Shown here: one piece after another, positions 331-61,685 of the stretch
How positions within the stretch are numbered: position 1 is the stretch's first letter
How the letters are laid out: every line of letters begins with the position of its first letter
Source of the DNA: Candidatus Iainarchaeum sp.
GTDB taxonomy: Archaea > Iainarchaeota > Iainarchaeia > Iainarchaeales > DTGL01
NCBI GenBank assembly: GCA_026396995.1
Contig: JAPLVS010000045.1
Span: 31,519-95,518 of the forward strand
DNA: 64,000 nt
Direction: 5' to 3'
Position numbers and translations under genes: made by a program
Notes under the pieces: model-generated
Database searches by the model: none
Seen by the model: the letters and a program-made list of their open reading frames with translations, nothing else
Told to the model about the DNA's origin: nothing

Positions 331-795
331 TTGATGGCATTTTTTAGAAGGGTTCCAAAGGGAACCACCGGGGAAAGACTTCTGATTTCAAAACGCGGAA
401 TAGTCCGCGAGCAACAGCCTGTGAAAGACAAGGAGGCCAAGAAGCCGAATTTAATCGCTTCTGCAAGGTTCGGCGAAGCCAGACGGGTGCTTGCAGCCCA
501 ATCGATTCCGGCTGAAAACATCAAGCAAATCGGCAAAACAGGAATTCTTGCCTTAAAGGACAAATCGGGAAATTTAGGGCTTGTTGTGCCTGAAGGTTCC
601 TTTGTCAGCAACAGGGAGGTTGTCGGCGTGGTTTCAAGGGTTCGGGAAACCCAAATGGTGGTAACGCCCAGGTTTGCATTAAAATATGCACGTCTGGGTA
701 AGAGATATGTGAGTTACGAAGGGAAAAAAATTACTGTTAAAGCTGACGCCAAAGGCGAAACCGGCTGGTTCCAGGTCGGCATACTGCTGAAATAA
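331..795 (+). CDS. Hypothetical protein (154 aa), basic, no recognisable motif
   Basis: ORF with TTG/ATG start, coding-like composition; overlapping antisense ORF 315..611 looks less protein-like. Confidence 0.35.
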   Translation: MMAFFRRVPKGTTGERLLISKRGIVREQQPVKDKEAKKPNLIASARFGEARRVLAAQSIPAENIKQIGKTGILALKDKSGNLGLVVPEGSFVSNREVVGVVSRVRETQMVVTPRFALKYARLGKRYVSYEGKKITVKADAKGETGWFQVGILLK

Positions 796-877
796 CAGCC
801 AAAGCCGCAATGACTTTTTTTATTGCTTAAAAGCAGTTTCTTTCTTTTTTTTCTTTTGGGCAAGTTAAGCAGTTTTT

Positions 878-958
878 CTTTCTTTTGGCCGCAGTCGTTT
901 TCTTTTCTTTCCGCAACTTACGCTTTCTTTTCTTTTCGTAAAAGAAAAGAAAGGGCAG
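878..958. repeat. A/T-rich 'aaagaaaag' palindromic element in 3' flank of tRNA-Arg(CCT)
   Basis: Hairpin ctttcttttcttttcgtaaaagaaaagaaag plus motif ttttcttttctttccgcaact, which recurs inside the tRNA-Ser(GGA) intron at ~53183..53205. Confidence 0.5.
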
Positions 959-961
959 GAG

Positions 962-1036
962 CGGGCCCGGTGGGATTTGAACCCACGACCCCCAGATTAG
1001 GAGTCTGGTGCTCTGTCCAAACTGAGCTACGGGTCC
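962..1036 (-). tRNA. tRNA-Arg (anticodon CCT)
   Basis: Reverse complement folds as cloverleaf: acceptor GGACCCG/CGGGCCC (one A-C mismatch), D arm GCTC-AGTTTGGAC-AGAGC, anticodon stem CCAGA/TCTGG with loop CTCCTAA, T arm GTGGG-TTCAAAT-CCCAC; no encoded CCA. Confidence 0.75.
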
Positions 1037-1110
1037 TTGCGGCCTTAACAGGCTTAGACTAATGATTTTCCTTGCAAAGATTTAAATAAACGGCATCTGT
1101 TATATTTGCG

Positions 1111-14305: not shown

Positions 14306-15202
14306 TTAACCCGTTCCTGCAAGATAAATGCAGCCCTCTTTTGCCGTTTGGTTTTGGATTTTGTCGCAGATTGTTGGGTCTTGTTTGTCTACAGCAACAT
14401 TATTATAGCAAGAGTCTTTGTTAATTTGTTCCTGGATTTTGTCACAGATTGAAGGATCTTGTTTGGCTGGGGCAATCTCAAAATAACAATGGTCTTTGCC
14501 GACCTGGTCTTGGAGTTGATCACAAATTAGCGGGTCTTGTTTTGCTATTGCAATACGATAATAGCAGCCCTCTTTTGCCGTTTGGTCTTGGATTTTGTCA
14601 CAAATTGAGATATCGTTTTTGTCAGAGGCAATGCGGGTATAGCAACTGCCTTTGGTATCTTGATATTTGATGTAATCGCAGAAAGCTGGGTTTTGTGTGG
14701 CTATGGCTATCTTGGTGTAGTCCTCGTAGGGCGGCTTGCATCCCCAAGAAAAAACAAGGTACAAAACAGCCAAAACACCAACCAAAAAAACAAAAATCCA
14801 CTTGGTCTTCTTGTGGTTCTCTTCAAAAAACCACAAAATGACAAAAATGCCTAAAAAAATAACAGGCGGAGCAAACCCTGACGAGGAATTAAACTTGTCG
14901 CAGGGATTGCGTAGATCCTGCTGGAAAACCATTGGGAGAACAAGCGCTGCAATGAACGCAAGCAGAACAGTCCATAAACAGGCCGCTTTCCAGAGTTTCC
15001 TGTTCGGCTCCTTTTTTTTGACGGAAAAAAAGCAAAGGATCAGGGATAGGAAAGGCACAAAACTAACAGCATAGCCAATTACTGTGTTGCCAAGTGGCAA
15101 AGCAAAAAGCACAGAGAGGAGCAATGCCGGTGGCACCAATAGCCAAACCAAAATAGCCAGGCACCCGAACTTATTCTCTTTGAAAGATTTCAACAAATCC
15201 AT
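14306..15202 (-). CDS. Polytopic membrane protein with C-terminal tandem Cys-rich ~28-aa repeats (paralogue of 1111..1890 and 60711..61436)
   Basis: N-terminal TM helices; five tandem units of ICDKIQ(D/E/N)Q.(A/G)K(E/D).CY..(I/V)A.(A/D)KQDP.; repeat visible at DNA level 14310..14700. Confidence 0.55.
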   Translation of the reverse strand: MDLLKSFKENKFGCLAILVWLLVPPALLLSVLFALPLGNTVIGYAVSFVPFLSLILCFFSVKKKEPNRKLWKAACLWTVLLAFIAALVLPMVFQQDLRNPCDKFNSSSGFAPPVIFLGIFVILWFFEENHKKTKWIFVFLVGVLAVLYLVFSWGCKPPYEDYTKIAIATQNPAFCDYIKYQDTKGSCYTRIASDKNDISICDKIQDQTAKEGCYYRIAIAKQDPLICDQLQDQVGKDHCYFEIAPAKQDPSICDKIQEQINKDSCYNNVAVDKQDPTICDKIQNQTAKEGCIYLAGTG

Positions 15203-37149: not shown

Positions 37150-37193
37150 CTTTTCTTTCTTTTAACCGACTCAGAATTTTCTTTTATCCATCA

Positions 37194-37246
37194 GGTCTTT
37201 TCTTTTGGCCAACCTAGGCTTTTCTTTTTTAAAAAGAAAAGCCCGG
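37194..37246. repeat. A/T-rich palindromic element in 3' flank of tRNA-Arg(TCT); near-identical copy inside tRNA-Ser(TGA) intron
   Basis: ggtcttttcttttggccaacctaggcttttcttttttaaaaagaaaagcccgg vs 61591..61646 ggtcttttctttttggcaaacctaggctttttcttttataaaaagaaaaaggctgg (~90% identity); contains hairpin cttttcttttt/aaaaagaaaag. Confidence 0.6.
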
Positions 37247-37249
37247 AAA

Positions 37250-37322
37250 CGAGCCCGGAGGGATTCGAACCCTCGACCTACTGCTTAGAAGGCAGCCGCG
37301 CTATCCACTGCGCTACGGGCCC
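37250..37322 (-). tRNA. tRNA-Arg (anticodon TCT)
   Basis: GGGCCCG-TA-GCGC-AGTGGATA-GCGC-G-GCTGC-CTTCTAA-GCAGT-AGGTC-GAGGG-TTCGAAT-CCCTC-CGGGCTC-G cloverleaf. Confidence 0.85.
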
Positions 37323-41635: not shown

Positions 41636-41720
41636 GCCTTTTTGCAGGAATGGCTCCAAAAAAAACAGAAGTGCGGAGCAGCGACTTTTTGGTAGCGTTC
41701 TATTTCAGCGTGTTTCAGAA

Positions 41721-42582: not shown

Positions 42583-42616
42583 TGCGGAGCAGCAGATTCG
42601 AACTGCTGAAGGCGCT
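42583..42616 (-). repeat. 34-bp partial copy of tRNA-Leu 3' end (att-like direct repeat)
   Basis: tgcggagcagcagattcgaactgctgaaggcgct vs 43879..43912 tgcggagtagcagattcgaactgctgaaggcact (32/34). Confidence 0.6.
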
Positions 42617-42685
42617 ATTCGGGCATATTTAAGGGGTTACGTTATAGCGTAACCCTTTATATACTCTTAGGCGCATTATTTTTTC

Positions 42686-43888
42686 ATGCTTTCAGGCGAT
42701 TACAAGGGGTTGTTGGATAAATGGGTTTTGAGGGAAAAAACCCATAAACGGGACGTCGAGGACGAAATTCTGCCTTTTATAAGCCGCAAAAACGTGGTTT
42801 TTTTGTTCGGGCCGAGGCGCGCCGGAAAATCCGTTGTTGCCAGGAGGCTCCTGGAGAGGATGCCGAAAGGCTCAAATACAAGGTACGTCAACTTGGAAGA
42901 CCCAAAACTAATAAATTCCCTGAACACTGATCTGATGGAGTCTTTTGCGGAAGGGCTTGAGGCAGACGACACGATTGTTTTTGACGAGGTTCAGCTTATC
43001 CCGGGCTGGGAAAAATGGGCAAGGAAAGCGGTCGATACAAGGCAATGCCAGATAATAGTGACAGGTTCATCGGCAAAGCTTTTGAGCGGCGAGTTTGCCT
43101 CTTCCCTTGGCGGGAGGGACATTGGCTTTCAGATACTGCCTTTTTCTTTCGCCGAATTCCGCAGGATAACCAAAAAAGGGCTGGATGAATACCTGAAAAC
43201 TGGCGGTTATCCGGAGGTTGTCCTGAATCCGGAGAAAAAAGAAAAACTGCTGGAATCATATTTCGAGCTTGCGCTTATAAAAGACATTGTGACACGATAT
43301 CAGGTAAGGGATTCGGCCGCACTAAGGAATATGGCTTTTTACTTGCTGACCAATTCCGGAAAACAGGTAAGCCTTAAAGGGATAAGAAGCGTTCTCGGGC
43401 TGTCATATGACACGATAAAGCAATTCCTGGATTACCTGGAATCGGCTTTTCTTGTGTTCCAAGTGCCGTTCTTTTCTTACTCGATGAAAGAATCCCTCAC
43501 AAGAGCCAGGAAAGTCTATGCCTTTGACCTCGGAATGCAGCAATATGCATCCAGGTCTTTCACCGAGGACAAGGGAAGGCTGGCCGAAGCGGCAGCCGCA
43601 ATAGAGCTAAAACGCAGGCAATTTGAAATCTTTTACTGGAAAAACTCAAAAGAAACCGACCTTGTGGCAAAAAAGAAAACCAAGGTGATGCCAATAAACG
43701 TCTGTTTCGCGGAAACAATCCCCGCAAGGGAAAAAGACGGGCTCATTGAATTCTGCAAAAAAAACAGGGCAAAAAAAGCGACAATACTGTACGCCGGAAA
43801 AACAGCGAAAACCAGCCAGGAAAACATCGAAATAGAAACAAAAAACCTGCAGGAATGGCTCCTGGAAAAAAATAGCAGTGCGGAGTAG
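42686..43888 (+). CDS. AAA_14/DUF4143-type ATPase
   Basis: Walker A GPRRAGKS, Walker B IVFDEVQ, C-terminal DUF4143-like region; sits between the tRNA-Leu and its partial direct repeat. Confidence 0.75.
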   Translation: MLSGDYKGLLDKWVLREKTHKRDVEDEILPFISRKNVVFLFGPRRAGKSVVARRLLERMPKGSNTRYVNLEDPKLINSLNTDLMESFAEGLEADDTIVFDEVQLIPGWEKWARKAVDTRQCQIIVTGSSAKLLSGEFASSLGGRDIGFQILPFSFAEFRRITKKGLDEYLKTGGYPEVVLNPEKKEKLLESYFELALIKDIVTRYQVRDSAALRNMAFYLLTNSGKQVSLKGIRSVLGLSYDTIKQFLDYLESAFLVFQVPFFSYSMKESLTRARKVYAFDLGMQQYASRSFTEDKGRLAEAAAAIELKRRQFEIFYWKNSKETDLVAKKKTKVMPINVCFAETIPAREKDGLIEFCKKNRAKKATILYAGKTAKTSQENIEIETKNLQEWLLEKNSSAE

Positions 43889-43962
43889 CAGATTCGAACT
43901 GCTGAAGGCACTAAGCCACAAGGCCCTCAACCTTGCCGGTTAGACCGCTCCCGTAACTCCGC
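43879..43962 (-). tRNA. tRNA-Leu (anticodon GAG)
   Basis: GCGGAGT-TA-CGG-GAGCGGTCTAA-CCG-G-CAAGG-TTGAGGG-CCTTG-long variable arm TGGCTTAGTGCCTTC-AGCAG-TTCGAAT-CTGCT-ACTCCGC-A. Confidence 0.8.
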
Positions 43963-45088: not shown

Positions 45089-48000
45089 TTGGGTGATTCT
45101 ATGAAAAAAACGCTTTCGTTACTGGTATTTTTGGCAATAATTTTGGTTCCCGCAACCGCAGCTGCAATGATGCAGACTGGAACGGCTGCAGCCGTACCTG
45201 TTGCAAACACAGGCGTGCAGGCCGAGGAAGGGAAAGGCGGAGTGGCCCCTGACTATTACAACCGCTATTTTTACATCAGCATAAGCGACAAGTTCATGCT
45301 CGGCGACAAGGTCGAAGCGCAGTTGTGCGGTTCAGGCCTTGCGACAGTTGAACTCTACAGGTTCGAGGACTTTTCAGCAATCTTCGACAGGTACAATTAC
45401 GGCATGAATGACACAAGCGATTTCATGAAAGGCGAAAAGCCCTTCAAAACCCTCACTGTACAGCTTGGAAACGGCCAGGACTGCCAGAAAGCGGATTTGC
45501 AGATAGAACAGGCAGGATTGTATTTCATAAAAGGCTATTCAACCGAATCGGACCAAAAGCCCACAGCGTTTTTTTCAGTCGAAGAAATCGCCTTCATGGC
45601 AAAAGAATCACCTGAAAAAATAGTATTCTATGCGGTTGATATCAAGACAGGAAAGCCGATTTCAGGCGCGGAAATAAAACTGCTCCAGCAGAAAACACCC
45701 ACGACACCGGAACAAAAGCCGGAAGCAACAGAAACAAGCCTTGGCTTCACCAATGATTTGGGATTATTCGAATGGCAGCAGGAAAAGCCTGCTTCAACAG
45801 ATTATTACCAGAGGCTCTTCATTGCAAAAAAAGACAATTCTTTCGCATATGTGCAAAGCTATTATTATGGCGGGGAAAGCGCCGAAAGGAAACAGGTTTA
45901 CCTTTTCACTGACCGCCCTATTTACAGGCCGAACCAGGAAGTGCACTTCAAGGGCATAGTCTGGGAAACAAGCACAGGCAAAAATGCCGCAGTTGCAAGC
46001 AAAACGCTTTCGGTTACGATAAGGGATTCGAAATGGAACGAGGTATTCAAGTCAGATTTTACAACCAATGAATTCGGCTCATTCGAAGGCTCTTTCAATC
46101 TCGCGGACGAGCCGCCTCTCGGGCAGTATTATATTGACGCAGCAATAAGCAAACCAGGGGAAGCCGAAGCCGGCTATTATTCAACCTCGGCTTCTTTCCA
46201 GGTGCAGGAATACCTGAAGCCTGAATTTGAAGTGACAGTGAACCCTTCCAAGGATGTTTTCATAGGCGGGGAAAAGGCGCGCGTCGAGATAAAGGCGGAA
46301 TACTTGTTCAAGGCGCCTGTGCAGGATGCGAAAGTGATGTACAGGGTTTATTCCTCATACTACCAGAGCCCGTGCTACGGCTACTGGAAATGCGTTTACT
46401 ACGACGAAGTGGCGGTTTCGCCTTACTCTTCTTACAGGTCTTACCCGTATTATGGCGGGCAAGAGCTTGTGACCGAAGGGGAAACAACCACTGACAGCGA
46501 GGGCAAGGCATTCCTAGAATTCGACACGAATGCAGACAGGGAAAAGCGCTACCAGATTGAAGCGACTGTTGTTGATGAAAGCAACCGCGAAGTGAAAGGC
46601 ACAGGCCAAATCACTGTTGCACCAGCAATGTTCAGGCTCACTGTAATGCCTGACAAGTGGTGGTACGCTGAAAACGAGGAGGTTGTGCTGAAAATCACAG
46701 CCGCAGACTTCGAGGGCGCAGCAGCGGAAACAAGCGCAACAGTGAAGGTTTTCTCGCTTAACTGGAACAGCACTTCAAGCGATTACGAACACACCCTGGT
46801 GAAAGAGGAAACAGCAAGCACAAGCGAAGGGAAAGCCGAAATAAGGCTCTCGCTCCCAACCGGAAATTATGCGGTGGAAGCATCAGCGCAGGATTCGAAA
46901 GGAAACACCGTGAAAGCCGAGAATTCATTCAGCGTCAGCTCTTATGAAAGCGAAAGCAAGGTGAAAGAAATAGAGGCAGCGCTTGACCGCGATTTCTATC
47001 TCCCAGGCGAACAGGCTGTGCTCACAATAACAATGCCTGAACCAGGATTCTACGCATTGATTTCGGTGGAAGGCAGGGGCATGTACCAGTACGAGGCGGT
47101 GTATTCTGCAGAAAACAGGCTTTCATACATCATTCCGGTTTCCACAGACTATGAGCCTAACGCCTTTGTTTCTGTGACAGGCGTGCAGGGCGGAAAGGTC
47201 TTCAACAAACAGCTTTCATTGAACGTGCCGCCGAAGGAAAAGAAAATAGATTTGAGCATCGAAACAGACGCGGAATATTACAGGCCAGGCGACAAGGCGC
47301 ACTATATAGTCAAAGCAACATCCGACGGCCAGCCTGTGGAAGCGGAATTCGCAGTAATGCTCGTTGATGAGGCAATCTACCAGCTCGCACAGGACAACAA
47401 GGAAGATATCTTCAAATTCTTCTTTGCGCCGGAATACAACAGAGTGAATACCCAGTGGAGCATAGGCGGGTATTATGGAGGCTATTACGGCATTAATGAA
47501 ATGGCTAAGGGCGGCGGAGGGGCCGTGCCAATGGCCACACCGACAACCCAAGCTGACAACGCAGCAAGGGACGGCGGAACAGCGTATGCCGCCGCAGAAA
47601 TAAGAAAGACCTTTTCTGACACGGCATTCTGGAAGGCATTCCTGAAAACGGATTCCACGGGAACTGCGGAATTCGATGTGGATTTGCCTGACAACCTCAC
47701 AACCTGGCGCGCTACAGTGATTGCGAATTCCGAAACAAAGGCAGGCGCACAGGAAGGCAAAATTGCAGTGACAAAAGATTTGCTTGCAAGGCTTATCCTT
47801 CCAAGGTTTGCTGTGAAAGGCGACGAATTTACTGTCACTGCAATCGTGCACAACAGTTTGCCTGAAATGAAAAACGTCCTGGTGAAAATCGAATCTGACA
47901 ACCTTGAATTCCCGGACGGGAACACAATAGAAATTACTGTTGCAAGCGGGAAAAGCGAAAAAGCTGAATTCAAGGCAATAGCGAAAAAATGCTGCTCTGC

Positions 48001-50989
48001 AACAATAAAACTGGAAGCGCTGACAGATGTCGAATCTGACGCGCTCGAAATAATAATGCCGGTATTCCCCTGGGGCATAAAGGAATTCGAGACGGTTTCA
48101 GGGGAAATAAGCGGTGCAACAAAAGAAATAACGATAGAGATTCCTGAGGAAACAGACAGGGAAGCCGACAAGCTGATAATAAAATTGAGCCCTACACTCG
48201 CGGCATCTGTTGTCGATTCATTGGATTACCTTACAGGCTACCCTTACGGCTGCGTCGAACAGACAATGTCAAAGTTTTTGCCTGACGTAGTTGTTTCGGA
48301 AACATTGGGCGAATTGAACCTTGACAACGAAAAAATTTCAAAGGATTTGCCTGACATGGTCGACAAGGGGCTGCAAAGGCTTTATTCTTTCCAGCACGCG
48401 GACGGCGGCTGGGGCTGGTGGGAAAACGATGAATCACAGCCTTTCATGACCGCTTACGCGATGTACGGCCTCACGCTGGCAAAAAAAGCAGGATTTAACG
48501 TAGAGGAAAGCGTGATTGAAAAAGGCCTCCAGGCAATGAGGGACAAATTCCATTCGGCAGGCACAAAAGGCTATGCCGACGAATACGATTCGCAGGCAGA
48601 AAAAGACTTGGAAGTGCAGGCATTCATGTCCTATGTGCTTTACCTCAACGGCGACAGCAAATTCGTGGGAGAGATTGAGGGCAAGGCAGGCGAAATGAGC
48701 GATTACGGCCTTGCGCTTCTCGCGCTCCAGGCAGAATCGAAAGAAGAGGCGCAGCCTTTCCTTGACTCGCTCGGCAAGAATGCAGCCTGCGACGCAACAT
48801 TCTGCTCCTGGCAGGGCAAAAGCTGGAGGCACTATTGGAGCGAAAGGGACATGGAGTCAACAGCGATGGTGCTGAAGGCGTTCGTGAAATGGCAGCCTGA
48901 AAGCGAACAGGCAAGGAAGGCAGTCGCATGGCTCATGAGCCAAAAGCAGTACAACCACTGGAATTCAACGCAGGACACTGCGACCGCAATAATGGCAATA
49001 ACAGATTACCTGAAATATTCAGGGGAATTGGACCCTGACTTCACAGCCAAAGTATACATAAACAACGAACTCAAAAAGGAATTCTCTGTCACAAAAGAAA
49101 ACCTGATGAGCACAGACGGAGACCTGACAATAGAGGTTCCGGAAAAGCAGAGCAACATCAGGATTGAAATGACAGGAAAAGGAAAGCTCTATTATTCGAT
49201 AACAAAAGAATACTTCGCGAAACAGGAAAAAATCGAAGCGAAAAGCAACGGCATCAAAATCACAAGGGAAGTGAAAAATGCCCTTGACATAGGCGAAGAG
49301 GCAACAGTGAAACTGACAATAGATGCGGACAAGGAATACGACTATGTCATTGTGGAGGACTTCCTGCCTGCCGGCGTTTCAATCGTTGATACCTGGCAGC
49401 GCAACACCTACGGGCACTATTACTGGGACTGGATGCCGTACTGGTATTCGAGGCTTGAAGCGCGCGACGAAAAGGCAGTGTTTTTCTTCGACAGCCTGCA
49501 GCAAGGCAAAACCGAACTCGAATACACGATAAGGGGCGAGGTTTCAGGCGCATTCAGGCACCTGCCTGCGCAGGCCTATTCCATGTACAATCCTGAAATC
49601 AACGGCCATTCTGAAGGAGGCAATTTCACTGTCACAACAGAAAAATCTTTCTCGCTGCCGAAACTCGAAGTGCACGACGACTACATATGGATTTACCCGA
49701 GACCGATTCCGATGGGTGCTGAAGTCAAGGCAACAGTCCTTGATGCTTCAGGCAAAGCCGTTGCATCGGCTTCAGGCCAGGCAAGCGAAGGAAAAATAGC
49801 GATTCCTTTGTCCGCAGGCCTCGCAAACGGAACCTATTCTGTCAGCGTTTCAACAGGGAGCGGAACTGCCACAAAGGACTTCCAGGTCGGCACTGTGGAA
49901 ATAAAGAAAGCAGAGCTTGCCTCGGCAACCTACACAAACGATCTCCTGGAAAGGACTGCACAGTCAGCATTCTCAAATCCCGCACAGGCAATGTGCACCT
50001 CGACAGGCGGCTCATGGAACGGCCGGTGCTCGTGCCCTTCAGGCTCGTACTGGCTTTTCGGCATAGGATGCCTTGCAAAAGGCGCCGGCATCGGGGGAAC
50101 GGCAGTTGAAAGCCTTTACCTTATTGCCTGCGCATTCCTATACTCCTTGCAGCCGATTTTCATCAAGGCGGCGCTCCCTTTTCTGACCCAATTCCAGATG
50201 TACGCTTTCCGCTGCGTTGGAACCCTGTTTGTGTTCCTTCCGCTCGCATTCCATTACAGGGAAAAGGTGCGCTCCGAGCTCAGGCAGTGGAAAAAATTCA
50301 TTGTTCCAGTAATAACAATCACCGGGGCAATGATGCTGTTTGTGGCAGGGATTTATCTTGCGGAAAACGCGACAGTCATGGCCCTGATAGCAAAATCCAA
50401 CCTTGTGTTCACGGCAATCCTGACAGTAATATTCTTTGCAGAGGAAAGGAGGGTGCTTTCCTCCAAAAGATTCATTGCCGGCGTCCTTTTGGCTTCAATC
50501 GGGGTAATCGGGGTCATCACGGCAGGGAAAGACTTGCCGCTCACATTCGGGATTGGCGCAATACTCATCCTGGTATCGCAGGTCTTCTGGAGCGCTTACT
50601 CGGTTTCACTGAAAGGATTGATAAAAAACAACAGCAGGCTTGAGGCATTGTGCGTGATTGTGCCGATGGCATTCCTTGTATCCGTGCCGTTTGCAGGCTA
50701 TGAAATCGCTGCCACAAACCCGCAAATAAACCCAATCTTTCTCCTGATACCGGTTGCAGCAGGAATGGCGCTCGGCCTTGCAAATATCTTTGAATTCAAG
50801 TCAATAGAAACCAAGGGCCTGATGATAACATACGCTTTCACGCTTATCAACCCGCTCCTCACAGGCTTAATCGCCTTCTTCATATTTCAGGAAACAATAT
50901 CAATCGCGCAGGCGGCCTTTGCTGCAGTCCTGATTGCAGGCGCACTGCTGATACTTAAATGCGAATGCATCGAAACCGAGGGCGACTGA
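45089..50989 (+). CDS. Alpha-2-macroglobulin-family thioester-containing protein fused to C-terminal EamA/DMT-type 10-TM transporter-like domain (1966 aa)
   Basis: Signal peptide MKKTLSLLVFLAIILVPATAAA; thioester motif LTGYPYGCVEQTMSKFLPD at nt ~48251..48262, followed by the W-rich block HADGGWGWWEND; beta-rich N-terminal 1000 aa consistent with MG domains; residues ~1680..1966 form ~10 TM helices in two EamA-like halves. Confidence 0.8.
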   Translation: MGDSMKKTLSLLVFLAIILVPATAAAMMQTGTAAAVPVANTGVQAEEGKGGVAPDYYNRYFYISISDKFMLGDKVEAQLCGSGLATVELYRFEDFSAIFDRYNYGMNDTSDFMKGEKPFKTLTVQLGNGQDCQKADLQIEQAGLYFIKGYSTESDQKPTAFFSVEEIAFMAKESPEKIVFYAVDIKTGKPISGAEIKLLQQKTPTTPEQKPEATETSLGFTNDLGLFEWQQEKPASTDYYQRLFIAKKDNSFAYVQSYYYGGESAERKQVYLFTDRPIYRPNQEVHFKGIVWETSTGKNAAVASKTLSVTIRDSKWNEVFKSDFTTNEFGSFEGSFNLADEPPLGQYYIDAAISKPGEAEAGYYSTSASFQVQEYLKPEFEVTVNPSKDVFIGGEKARVEIKAEYLFKAPVQDAKVMYRVYSSYYQSPCYGYWKCVYYDEVAVSPYSSYRSYPYYGGQELVTEGETTTDSEGKAFLEFDTNADREKRYQIEATVVDESNREVKGTGQITVAPAMFRLTVMPDKWWYAENEEVVLKITAADFEGAAAETSATVKVFSLNWNSTSSDYEHTLVKEETASTSEGKAEIRLSLPTGNYAVEASAQDSKGNTVKAENSFSVSSYESESKVKEIEAALDRDFYLPGEQAVLTITMPEPGFYALISVEGRGMYQYEAVYSAENRLSYIIPVSTDYEPNAFVSVTGVQGGKVFNKQLSLNVPPKEKKIDLSIETDAEYYRPGDKAHYIVKATSDGQPVEAEFAVMLVDEAIYQLAQDNKEDIFKFFFAPEYNRVNTQWSIGGYYGGYYGINEMAKGGGGAVPMATPTTQADNAARDGGTAYAAAEIRKTFSDTAFWKAFLKTDSTGTAEFDVDLPDNLTTWRATVIANSETKAGAQEGKIAVTKDLLARLILPRFAVKGDEFTVTAIVHNSLPEMKNVLVKIESDNLEFPDGNTIEITVASGKSEKAEFKAIAKKCCSATIKLEALTDVESDALEIIMPVFPWGIKEFETVSGEISGATKEITIEIPEETDREADKLIIKLSPTLAASVVDSLDYLTGYPYGCVEQTMSKFLPDVVVSETLGELNLDNEKISKDLPDMVDKGLQRLYSFQHADGGWGWWENDESQPFMTAYAMYGLTLAKKAGFNVEESVIEKGLQAMRDKFHSAGTKGYADEYDSQAEKDLEVQAFMSYVLYLNGDSKFVGEIEGKAGEMSDYGLALLALQAESKEEAQPFLDSLGKNAACDATFCSWQGKSWRHYWSERDMESTAMVLKAFVKWQPESEQARKAVAWLMSQKQYNHWNSTQDTATAIMAITDYLKYSGELDPDFTAKVYINNELKKEFSVTKENLMSTDGDLTIEVPEKQSNIRIEMTGKGKLYYSITKEYFAKQEKIEAKSNGIKITREVKNALDIGEEATVKLTIDADKEYDYVIVEDFLPAGVSIVDTWQRNTYGHYYWDWMPYWYSRLEARDEKAVFFFDSLQQGKTELEYTIRGEVSGAFRHLPAQAYSMYNPEINGHSEGGNFTVTTEKSFSLPKLEVHDDYIWIYPRPIPMGAEVKATVLDASGKAVASASGQASEGKIAIPLSAGLANGTYSVSVSTGSGTATKDFQVGTVEIKKAELASATYTNDLLERTAQSAFSNPAQAMCTSTGGSWNGRCSCPSGSYWLFGIGCLAKGAGIGGTAVESLYLIACAFLYSLQPIFIKAALPFLTQFQMYAFRCVGTLFVFLPLAFHYREKVRSELRQWKKFIVPVITITGAMMLFVAGIYLAENATVMALIAKSNLVFTAILTVIFFAEERRVLSSKRFIAGVLLASIGVIGVITAGKDLPLTFGIGAILILVSQVFWSAYSVSLKGLIKNNSRLEALCVIVPMAFLVSVPFAGYEIAATNPQINPIFLLIPVAAGMALGLANIFEFKSIETKGLMITYAFTLINPLLTGLIAFFIFQETISIAQAAFAAVLIAGALLILKCECIETEGD

Positions 50990-53095: not shown

Positions 53096-53273
53096 CGCCG
53101 AGAGAGGGATTCGAACCCCCGCATGCTTGCGCATACCAGCTCTTTGGCCAGCTGCAGAGAAGTGACTGATATATTAATCAAACTTTTTCTTTTCTTTCCG
53201 CAACTCCCTGTTCAAGCTTGGCTTGAACAGGAGGATTCCAGACTGGCGCGTTAGACCGCTCCGCCATCTCGGC
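53096..53273 (-). tRNA. tRNA-Ser (anticodon GGA) interrupted by ~94-nt intron
   Basis: 5' exon GCCGAGATGGCGGAGCGGTCTAACGCGCCAGTCTGGAA (~53236..53273), 3' exon AGCTGG-TATGCGCAAGCATGC-GGGGGTTCGAATCCCTC-TCTCGGC-G (~53096..53141); acceptor stems fully complementary; Ser-type long D loop and variable hairpin; intron contains perfect 11-bp-stem hairpin cctgttcaagc-caa-gcttgaacagg. Confidence 0.7.
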
Positions 53274-61512: not shown

Positions 61513-61685
61513 CGCCGAGAGAGGGATTTGAACCCCCGCATGCCAGAGGCATACCAGCTTACTCGCCGCAATATTTTGCTTTTGCCATGAGGTCTTTTCT
61601 TTTTGGCAAACCTAGGCTTTTTCTTTTATAAAAAGAAAAAGGCTGGGCTCAAGGCTGGCGCGTTAGACCACTCCGCCATCTCGGC
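61513..61685 (-). tRNA. tRNA-Ser (anticodon TGA) interrupted by ~89-nt intron
   Basis: 5' exon GCCGAGATGGCGGAGTGGTCTAACGCGCCAGCCTTGAG (~61648..61685), 3' exon A-GCTGG-TATGCCTCTGGCATGC-GGGGGTTCAAATCCCTC-TCTCGGC-G (~61513..61558); anticodon stem CCAGC/GCTGG; intron carries the aaagaaaag palindromic element. Confidence 0.7.

Follow-up and report, generated by a model that had tools for sequence, protein, structure and literature searches.

Two tRNA-Ser genes of Candidatus Iainarchaeum sp., a DPANN archaeon (Iainarchaeota/Diapherotrites), are each split by an intron, and both introns carry a repeat that also follows tRNA genes directly. Both genes lie in the stretch analyzed here, 64,000 nucleotides (nt) of contig JAPLVS010000045.1 (the window). 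The repeat contains a pyrimidine tract (Y), a purine tract that is its reverse complement (R1), and a second purine tract (R2) that mirrors R1; we call it the Y-R-R element. This triplex-type symmetry is its defining feature, and it was missed by the sequence-only reading, the earlier note on this DNA that our analysis followed up. A triplex-type repeat tying tRNA introns to tRNA trailers is apparently previously undescribed. We found no description of the element in the literature, and a search of the window and the carrier loci gave no Rfam family matching it.

Two tRNA-Ser genes with introns at position 37/38

The sequence-only reading had called two intron-split tRNA-Ser genes at 53096..53273 and 61513..61685, and both calls held. 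The Rfam tRNA model (RF00005) aligned tRNA-Ser(GGA) (53096..53273, minus strand, 41.2 bits) and tRNA-Ser(TGA) (61513..61685, minus strand, 45.1 bits) end to end, with a single insertion in the anticodon loop of 96 and 91 nt, respectively. Intron borders were set by the Rfam tRNA model and by manual and scripted analysis of the bulge-helix-bulge (BHB) splice motif. Cut between positions 37 and 38, tRNA-Ser(GGA) was divided into a 5' exon of 38 nt (53236..53273), an intron of 94 nt (53142..53235), and a 3' exon of 46 nt (53096..53141). The corresponding parts of tRNA-Ser(TGA) were 38 nt (61648..61685), 88 nt (61560..61647), and 47 nt (61513..61559). The lengths proposed earlier (46-nt 3' exons and introns of 89–94 nt) were thus correct for the GGA gene and 1 nt off for the TGA gene. 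The joined exons (38 + 46 and 38 + 47 nt) rebuilt class II tRNA-Ser molecules with a 7-nt loop and a complete cloverleaf. The complementary acceptor stems noticed earlier (GCCGAGA/TCTCGGC in DNA, GCCGAGA/UCUCGGC in RNA) were present in both genes, and together with the long variable arm and G73 they indicated serine identity. Plain ARAGORN, without intron mode, missed both genes. With introns enabled, it found both, misplaced their introns, and miscalled their identities as Ala and Thr.

The sequence-only reading had left the BHB motifs to be defined. A BHB motif folded at the canonical 37/38 boundary in both genes. For the predicted motif of the tRNA-Ser(GGA) intron, U33G34G35 (53238..53240) paired with CCA (53145..53147) and C32 formed a mismatch with A, giving three of the four central pairs. 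The bulges were A36-A37-U and A-G-A38. Its outer helix consisted of CC (53233..53234) paired with GG (53148..53149) and was extended by CUG/CAG after a 2 × 2 internal loop, so that this helix (h') was interrupted. The orthologous gene in a related genome (L004; L-numbers are labels of loci from genome and metagenome scans) had identical exons and a contiguous outer helix of 5 base pairs (bp), CCUGC/GCAGG. For the tRNA-Ser(TGA) intron, C32U33U34G35 (61650..61653) paired with CGAG (61562..61565) in all four central positions, the bulges were A36-G37-C and U-A-A38, and CC (61645..61646) with GG (61566..61567) formed a 2-bp h'. The position of this intron had been ambiguous between 36/37 and 37/38. 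The 4-bp central helix CUUG/CGAG between two 3-nt bulges settled it for 37/38.

By sequence and energy model, both introns have a relaxed form of the hBHBh' motif (two 3-nt bulges, a 4-bp helix, and flanking helices). Unconstrained minimum free energy folding gave neither the cloverleaf nor the BHB, and the constrained BHB fold lay 5–9 kcal/mol above the minimum. These energies were compatible with the BHB and are not proof of it. Both introns are very probably genuine canonical (37/38) archaeal introns. They appear ordinary in position and mechanism and unusual in content.

Repeat copies in the window

The intron of tRNA-Ser(TGA) contains a copy at 61593..61646 (minus strand) with the sequence CAGCC-T5CT5-loop-A4GA5-GCCTAGGTTTGCC-A5GA4GA, that is, Y, R1, linker, and mirror R2. 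This intron was aligned with the 3' trailer of tRNA-Arg(TCT) (gene at 37250..37322, minus strand, found by ARAGORN and by Rfam with 72.1 bits), and 60 of 68 positions were identical (88%, local-alignment z = 28 versus shuffles). The segment that had been noted earlier between these loci, 55 nt of about 90% identity, is therefore real and longer. The trailer copy (37176..37243, minus strand) begins 7 nt past the tRNA and extends into the 5' untranslated region of a cytidine deaminase gene.

The second pair is formed by the tRNA-Ser(GGA) intron and the trailer of tRNA-Arg(CCT) (gene at 962..1036, minus strand, by ARAGORN and Rfam). The earlier observation that intron sequence recurs 3' of this tRNA was confirmed as an exact 21-mer, AGTTGCGGAAAGAAAAGAAAA, at 53185..53205 and 898..918. 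The trailer holds a complete copy (898..959, minus strand), CCTGCCC-T3CT4CT4-acg-A4GA4GA3G-CGTAAGTTGCGG-A3GA4GA4. It is followed by two tandem units of a GC clamp plus a purine tract without a hairpin of their own (837..897, minus strand), GCGGCC-AAAAGAAAGAAAAA and TTGCCC-AAAAGAAAAAAAAGAAAGAAA. The intron holds an orphan linker plus R2 tract, AGTTGCGG AAAGAAAAGAAAAAG (53183..53205, minus strand), which is 100% identical to 898..918 over 21 nt and matches the L004 intron. The sequence-only reading had placed a T-rich/A-rich hairpin in all copies. This intron lacks it and has in its place an unrelated perfect 11-bp hairpin, CCTGTTCAAGC-caa-GCTTGAACAGG (53206..53232, minus strand), which was absent from every other locus compared. 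At the tRNA-Arg(CCT) locus, the 7 nt directly 5' of the tRNA (GCCGCAA, 1037..1043, minus strand) are complementary to TTGCGGC (804..810), about 150 nt downstream and past the repeat array. The pair could be a leader-trailer stem or chance.

Local alignments between introns and trailers of the window scored 10 to 28 standard deviations over shuffles, and AAAGAAAAGA occurred 7 times in the window versus 0.99 times expected. A core-motif scan of the 64 kb found only four sites, all tRNA-linked and every one on the tRNA strand, and each subtype was common to one intron and one trailer. The element was absent from tRNA-Thr(CGT) and tRNA-Leu(GAG), two of the window's six tRNAs, which have ordinary T7–T8 runs.

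The repeat family in metagenomes

Metagenomes were scanned with a degenerate pattern consisting of the R1 end, the linker, and the R2 start. At least 120 loci matched. The family counts given here rest on the matches listed from this pattern-based scan and carry its bias. An upstream hairpin of at least 8 bp was present in 65 copies, 56 of which were distinct parsed copies. Contexts were assigned by ARAGORN, Rfam, and inspection.

The element has the order C(T/C)GCCC, Y, loop, R1, linker GTGCAAGTTGCCC, R2. Y is made of T-runs of 3–5 nt, occasionally more, split by single C residues. The loop has 2–6 nt, R1 is the reverse complement of Y, and the 13-nt linker is G(T/C)GCA(A/G)GTTGC(CC/GG). GGCA(A/G) often follows R2. 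A subfamily (L018, L035, L044, L045, L088, L117) has a conserved second hairpin, GGTTTTCGC-nnn-GCGAAAACA, directly after R2.

Canonical introns begin with the element in 20 cases, 1–8 nt past the 5' splice site, and in 18 of the 20 the canonical 37/38 BHB was solved. The element-bearing introns belong to at least nine tRNA species: Ser(GGA, CGA, TGA), Glu(CTC, TTC), Thr(TGT, CGT), Pro(CGG), Asp, Cys, and Trp. At least 15 copies start 0–9 nt past a tRNA 3' end (12 trailers by ARAGORN and 3 by eye or Rfam). Four antisense copies adjoin a tRNA 5' end (L039, L049) or a 3' exon (L064, L044), so that the CTGCCC end always faces the tRNA. Of the other 31 copies, 7 follow the stop codon of a same-strand open reading frame (ORF) at 0–28 nt, and for 5 of these the distance is about 3 nt or less. 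A convergent ORF ends no more than 120 nt away from 9 copies.

Element-bearing introns share with canonical archaeal tRNA introns the position 37/38, the hBHBh'-type motif with three or four of the four central pairs, and the 3-nt bulges. Presumably they are likewise excised by EndA and the exons joined by RtcB. Ordinary archaeal tRNA introns are short and lineage-specific. Those described here are unusually long (77–155 nt), and their 5' two-thirds are a conserved repeat that also occurs at non-intron sites.

The carrier contigs have 29–51% GC, and carriers beyond Iainarchaeota are probably other low-GC DPANN archaea. Eight IMG/VR sequences matched the same pattern, none with the hairpin architecture, which gave no sign of a viral carrier. 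The repeat family and its anatomy are real, as we can state with near certainty. The family that the sequence-only reading had proposed at tRNA loci thus grew to dozens of metagenomic copies, which lie in the introns and trailers of many tRNAs. That reading had taken confinement to four places as a sign that the element is less likely to be mobile. There are four places in the window, but the element is widespread outside it.

Covariation and mirror symmetry

Because the stems vary in length, covariation was counted by base-anchored scripts. The hairpin pair x2-y6 (the nucleotide before GCCC with the second nucleotide of A(A/G)GTT) was T-A in 38 copies, C-G in 11, and neither in 2. Within the hairpins, G·T wobbles occurred 20 times on the sense strand versus one A·C, indicating that the folding strand is the strand carrying the tRNA.

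The first A-run of R2 had the same length as the stem-base run of R1 in 55 of the 56 copies (3:3 in 17, 4:4 in 20, and 5:5 in 18). Read 5' to 3' from the GC clamp, the run-length pattern of R2 equals that of Y and is the reverse of that of R1. When reversed R1 was compared with R2, the anchored identity was 490/496 (98.8%). It fell to 79.6% with R2 permuted among copies, and none of 5000 permutations reached the observed value. The 50 asymmetric copies showed the mirror order in 49 cases and the direct order in none. This result was not imposed by the scan, because the pattern permitted all nine run-length combinations. The orthologous tRNA-Ile trailers of three related contigs had the patterns (4,3,3), (3,5), and (5,4,1), each with its own matching R2. 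Mismatch position y2 covaried with the dinucleotide that precedes R2 (GG with C at y2 in 7 copies, CC with T at y2 in 38), which is the register to be expected if R2 folds back antiparallel to R1. In one tRNA-Ala trailer (L105, about 688..760), Y (4,3,1) no longer fits R1 (5,3), yet R2 (3,5,1) has kept the mirror of R1. This copy may have recombined at the loop, or the R1/R2 mirror may be the constraint that comes first. A switch in which R2 serves as an alternative Watson-Crick partner of Y was ruled out by the 49 mirror versus 0 direct orders.

The three blocks of purine-motif triplex repeats (Y, reverse-complement R, and mirror R) were found in 55 of the 56 copies. Templated copying cannot produce a mirror repeat. 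Such symmetry is what triple-strand pairing requires. By its sequence, the layout Y-R1-R2 on the tRNA strand corresponds to an intrastrand triplex of the purine motif (A*A-T, G*G-C), and the complementary strand has the pyrimidine motif. Selection for a triple-strand fold is likely. Bacterial PIT/BoxC/TM_ECO repeats have the same strand plan and form an intrastrand DNA triplex in vitro, with no known function (PMC4666352). Purine-motif triplexes are reported to be unable to form in RNA (PMC4666352). This published chemistry, together with the sense-strand wobbles, makes single-stranded DNA of the sense strand, such as the lagging or non-template strand, the favored place of the fold. A triple-strand fold in RNA, which would be without precedent, is possible.

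The archaeal element resembles PIT/BoxC/TM_ECO (PMC4666352) in the succession of Y stem, loop, R stem, loop, and R stem, in being present in multiple, mostly intergenic copies, and in having no known function. It differs in being A/T-rich rather than G/C-rich, in its 13-nt linker in place of a 3-nt loop, in its CTGCCC terminus, and in its tight attachment to tRNA genes and presence in spliced introns. There was no sequence homology, and the combination of short 3–6 nt loops and G/C-rich stems that marks TM_ECO was not found in it. From these features, the Y-R-R element appears to be an analogue and not a TM_ECO member.

Orthologous loci in close relatives

When species-representative genomes were scanned with the 5' exon, orthologs appeared in the Candidatus Iainarchaeum metagenome-assembled genome (MAG) JAZDDY01. 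The tRNA-Ser(GGA) ortholog (L004, 3779..3962) carries the full T/A hairpin in its intron. This intron matched the window's tRNA-Arg(CCT) trailer at 94% over 63 aligned columns, starting from the first nucleotides of intron and trailer (z = 31). Since L004 keeps the full hairpin and this similarity, the intron and trailer copies are homologous and the hairpin in the window's tRNA-Ser(GGA) intron is a recent replacement. At the tRNA-Arg(TCT) locus of the same MAG (L136), the hairpin and the linker plus R2 are kept, and two other perfect hairpins are inserted between them. A more distant Diapherotrites genome (L137) has the same gene order and tRNA-Arg(TCT), followed only by T7/T9 runs without the element. 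The orthologous tRNA-Arg(TCT) site is thus filled in the window and L136 and empty in L137. The tRNA-Ser genes of more distant DPANN are intronless. The element was better conserved than its flanks at orthologous loci, with 91% versus 81–83% and 87% versus 59–63% identity.

Upstream of tRNA-Ser(GGA), the promoter and ArgG (89% amino-acid identity) are conserved with the related Iainarchaeum MAG. Synteny between the window and this relative stops exactly at the tRNA-Ser(GGA) 3' end (L004 from 3963 onward, window from 53095 downward). Short perfect hairpins with 3-nt loops form a second class, TTCAAGC-caa-GCTTGAA (53206..53232), TTTTGAACC-aaa-GGTTCAAAA, and CCCTTTCAAAGC-aag-GCTTTGAAAAGGG, with sites including L136 1441..1497 and L050 about 400..430. 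They replace or interrupt the main repeat in tRNA introns and trailers. From these cases, tRNA flanks and introns appear to be mosaics of exchangeable hairpin modules.

Other features of the window

The tRNA-Leu(GAG) gene (43878..43962) has two partial 3'-end copies on the minus strand at 42583..42617 and about 41657..41690, lying 1.3 and 2.2 kb downstream of it. Over 35 nt, the first kind of copy has 94% identity, with a different acceptor base; the other copy is shorter and has a similar 3' flank. These fragments resemble att-site duplications from integrated elements. The ORF between them (42686..43888, plus strand) encodes an AAA_14/DUF4143 ATPase and not an integrase. Directly upstream of a tRNA-Leu 3' fragment there is a perfect 11-bp hairpin, AAGGGTTACG...CGTAACCCCTT (42630..42659), with a TATA-like GTATATAAAG before it. 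This segment could be what is left of inserted DNA, or a promoter.

Five tandem 78-nt units with 65–71% identity (reported as four overlapping 156-nt copies with 78-nt spacing) lie at 14323..14712, within an ORF at 14306..15202 (minus strand). The ORF had only a weak Wzy_C match and probably encodes a repeat-containing membrane protein. A 1966-aa ORF at 45089..50989 (plus strand) has alpha-2-macroglobulin domains (MG2, A2M, TED, bMG10) and a C-terminal EamA transporter-like region, an uncommon find in a DPANN genome of small size. Two gene calls may have been fused here.

Discussion

We lean toward the view that the Y-R-R element is a REP/PIT-like repeat that duplicates at the DNA level and is a tolerated passenger in introns. 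Y pairs with R1 as a hairpin, and the mirror tract R2 would let the tRNA strand fold back in vivo into a three-stranded, purine-motif DNA structure. Copies would duplicate at the DNA level, with the CTGCCC end settling at the borders of tRNA genes and exons, in trailers, leaders, and introns, as well as at ORF 3' ends. In introns, the terminal CUGCC and a downstream GGCAG-like segment would form the outer helix of the splice motif. The splicing endonuclease would then excise the intron at the BHB and remove the whole element, most of each intron being one copy.

Several observations fit duplicative spread. A single contig can hold the same copy in two settings: in L093, the copy of a Cys intron is identical to one at an ORF 3' end, and in L021, two Ser trailers have identical copies. 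Both orientations, tandem copies, and orphan pieces of the element occur, and the hairpin module is swapped or interrupted in close relatives. The sharing of each window subtype by one intron and one trailer, the filled and empty orthologous sites, and the tRNA-end duplications beside copies described below point the same way. The sequence-only reading had offered two explanations, a mobile or duplicative element and a conserved processing or termination structure. The former fits better. A dedicated processing or termination structure fits less well, although a functional role is possible.

Transposed tRNA introns are described in Thermoproteales (Fujishima et al. 2010, as summarized in PMC4090602), and a model of intron gain via a mobile element was proposed for Caldiarchaeum (PMC3293823). 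These cases resemble ours in near-identical introns in unrelated tRNAs, in tRNA-fragment duplications nearby, and in the DNA-level gain proposed for them. A near-identical intron in tRNAs of different identity, the mark of mobile introns, is found here, and the Cys-intron copy of L093 is identical to a non-tRNA copy on the same contig. Compared with the introns of the Thermoproteales type as summarized there, our element occurs in another clade. Non-canonical positions were not found, the 18 introns solved among the 20 listed all being at 37/38. The unit also occurs in trailers, leaders, and ORF 3' ends, has a triplex-type architecture, and had no recombinase that we could find. Two tRNA-end duplications were seen in the scans. 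At L031 (250..500, minus strand), an 18-nt tRNA 5' segment, ATGCGGGGGTGCCAGAGC, is duplicated on both sides of an insert of about 110 bp that starts with the repeat, which looks like a 5'-fragment duplication rather than a D-arm intron. At L050 (280..520, minus strand), the 26-nt 3' end of a tRNA occurs twice, and the second occurrence is followed by the repeat. Both recall the Caldiarchaeum model and the Thermoproteales intron transposition.

Bacterial REP/BIME sequences, which lie at the 3' ends of genes in either orientation, are short hairpins with imperfect pairing and conserved flanks, arrayed in tandem or as mosaics with other hairpins. The Y-R-R element shares the hairpin with flanks at gene 3' ends, both orientations, and the mosaic arrangement. 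It differs in its mirror purine tract, tRNA and intron association, and archaeal host, and no RAYT-like transposase was seen.

Other points weigh against a passenger that spreads by duplication. No transposase, integrase, or other recurrent neighbor gene was found, the best protein family being present at 4 of the 58 carrier loci listed. Some copies have CTGCCC...GGGCAG ends (L108, L017), and one intron holds a sense and an antisense copy (L044); among the copies listed, there was no consistent target-site duplication and no complete two-ended copy with a clean one. Non-tract sequence is near-invariant across lineages of 29–51% GC, and the element is better conserved than orthologous flanks; such conservation suggests purifying selection on a function more than it does a selfish passenger. 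The precise placement, 0–9 nt past tRNA 3' ends, 1–8 nt past the 5' splice site, and 0–3 nt past some stop codons, also suggests function. Simple insertion alone cannot make an anticodon-specific BHB central helix and so does not account for element-bearing introns. The copies are phylogenetically related and not independent, which inflates the covariation statistics, and triplex formation is read from symmetry only. The carrier contigs are characterized by GC, with taxonomy given for few. Mobility and function can both hold, as for bacterial REP elements.

A bolder proposal is a functional, conserved three-stranded module, in RNA or in co-transcriptionally exposed non-template DNA, that would mark and control tRNA and mRNA processing or transcription boundaries in DPANN. 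Alternatively, the element could be an "introner" that brings half of the splice motif with it and so gives rise to canonical tRNA introns. We consider this doubtful, though worth stating. An equally tentative explanation is a functional RNA module of primary transcripts, a structured cap at the RNase Z site, the 5' splice site, the RNase P site (antisense copies), or the stop codon. Such a cap could guide or insulate processing, block exonucleases at 3' ends, or yield stable small RNAs from introns and trailers, with R2 in a tertiary RNA contact (triple-strand or loop-helix). It would agree with the deep conservation with compensatory changes, the G·U wobbles on the transcribed sense strand, the exact abutment to processing sites in more than 35 copies, and the conservation of the element above its flanks. 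The lack of a transposase near copies also agrees with it, as does the location of R2 in the loop of a second stem, UUGCC/GGCAA, in many copies. However, the sense-strand mirror specifies the purine-motif (R*R-Y) triplex that is reported not to form in RNA (PMC4666352), and antisense copies occur in tRNA leaders and at intron 3' ends. The hairpin is replaced in the window's tRNA-Ser(GGA) intron and the element is absent from the L137 tRNA-Arg(TCT) trailer, with no sign of harm, and tRNA-Thr(CGT) and tRNA-Leu(GAG) do without it. RNA triple helices of the ENE/MALAT1 type (PMC7583470, PMC8457004) are comparable in that there is triple-strand symmetry beside a tRNA processing site and a U-rich/U-rich/A-rich layout on the antisense strand of the element. 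The tRNA strand of the Y-R-R element, in contrast, has one U-rich and two A-rich tracts (purine motif, not U·A-U), and 3'-end protection is not evidenced for it.

A transcription terminator or pause site at gene 3' ends, with the intron copies as leaky by-products, is improbable. It could act through the C-interrupted oligo-T tract or through a transcription-induced DNA triplex or R-loop on the non-template strand, as in GAA·TTC repeats. Archaeal oligo-T terminators are uninterrupted runs of about 5–8 T directly after the gene; the Y tracts are T3–5 runs interrupted by C. The element occupies the place of the plain T7/T9 terminators of L137, the window's tRNA-Arg trailers have no other T-run of 6 or more, and the copies after same-strand ORFs and near convergent ORF ends lie where a terminator would. 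The tRNA-Arg(CCT) array, read on the opposite strand, also gives the convergent gene 331..795 several T-runs. However, an efficient terminator could not sit in essential tRNA introns, and the mobile reading therefore fits better: 20 of the copies listed lie in introns of tRNAs that need read-through, including the window's tRNA-Ser(TGA) with T5CT5. Termination leaves the 13-nt linker and the CTGCCC end unexplained, and bacterial PIT elements showed no terminator activity (PMC4666352).

It is very improbable that the tRNA-Ser genes are "cis-split", the repeat ending a 5'-half transcript and an internal promoter driving the 3' half, with the halves joined in trans as in Nanoarchaeum. The introns do start with the same module as real tRNA trailers, and the tRNA-Ser(GGA) intron has a TATA-like TTAATATAT that is kept in L004. 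However, most introns leave only 15–40 nt after R2 and before the 3' exon, and this space could not hold a TATA box, the roughly 25 nt from there to a start site, and also the 3' BHB strand. A promoter-like motif conserved across the 18 introns was not seen, the TATA-like motif being confined to the tRNA-Ser(GGA) lineage. The model was rejected for want of space and of a shared promoter, and the halves are contiguous. The split tRNAs of Nanoarchaeum and Caldivirga (PMC4090602) are alike in that the intron begins like the trailer of a tRNA half and a BHB forms between flanking sequences; they differ from the contiguous halves found here, which have no room for an internal promoter and are predicted to be cis-spliced. 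Hardly credible, finally, is a chance likeness of low-complexity A/T-rich sequence or an intron-hosted C/D-box small RNA as in tRNA-Trp: the tracts are of low complexity and the tRNA-Arg(TCT) trailer has UGAUGG, 12 nt, and CUGA, but z was 28–31 versus shuffles, the non-repetitive linker and ends are conserved across the 56 copies listed, the box-like strings are not conserved in the homologous tRNA-Ser(TGA) intron, no box is conserved between homologous copies, and no Rfam snoRNA matched even at E ≤ 1.

Whether archaeal tRNA introns are ancient relics or late insertions is a long-standing question, and the evidence for late gain has so far come mainly from Thermoproteales. Here, one recognizable module joins tRNA trailers and gene 3' ends to the canonical introns found in many tRNAs of many uncultured lineages, and simple genome comparisons based on this single module can therefore follow how introns are gained, lost, and exchanged. 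Because of the element, standard tRNA finders overlook or misassign genes of this kind, for which it could also be a marker. The three-way covariation is unusually clean evidence for natural selection on a triple-strand fold, and at about 55–60 nt the element is a compact model for whether such folds act in DNA or RNA. If it is a functional module, no purine-motif triplex in nature would have been assigned a conserved role before it. If it is an introner, it would be the first mobile source of canonical archaeal tRNA introns to be defined by its sequence. The Y-R-R repeat may thus show how tRNA introns arise and spread.

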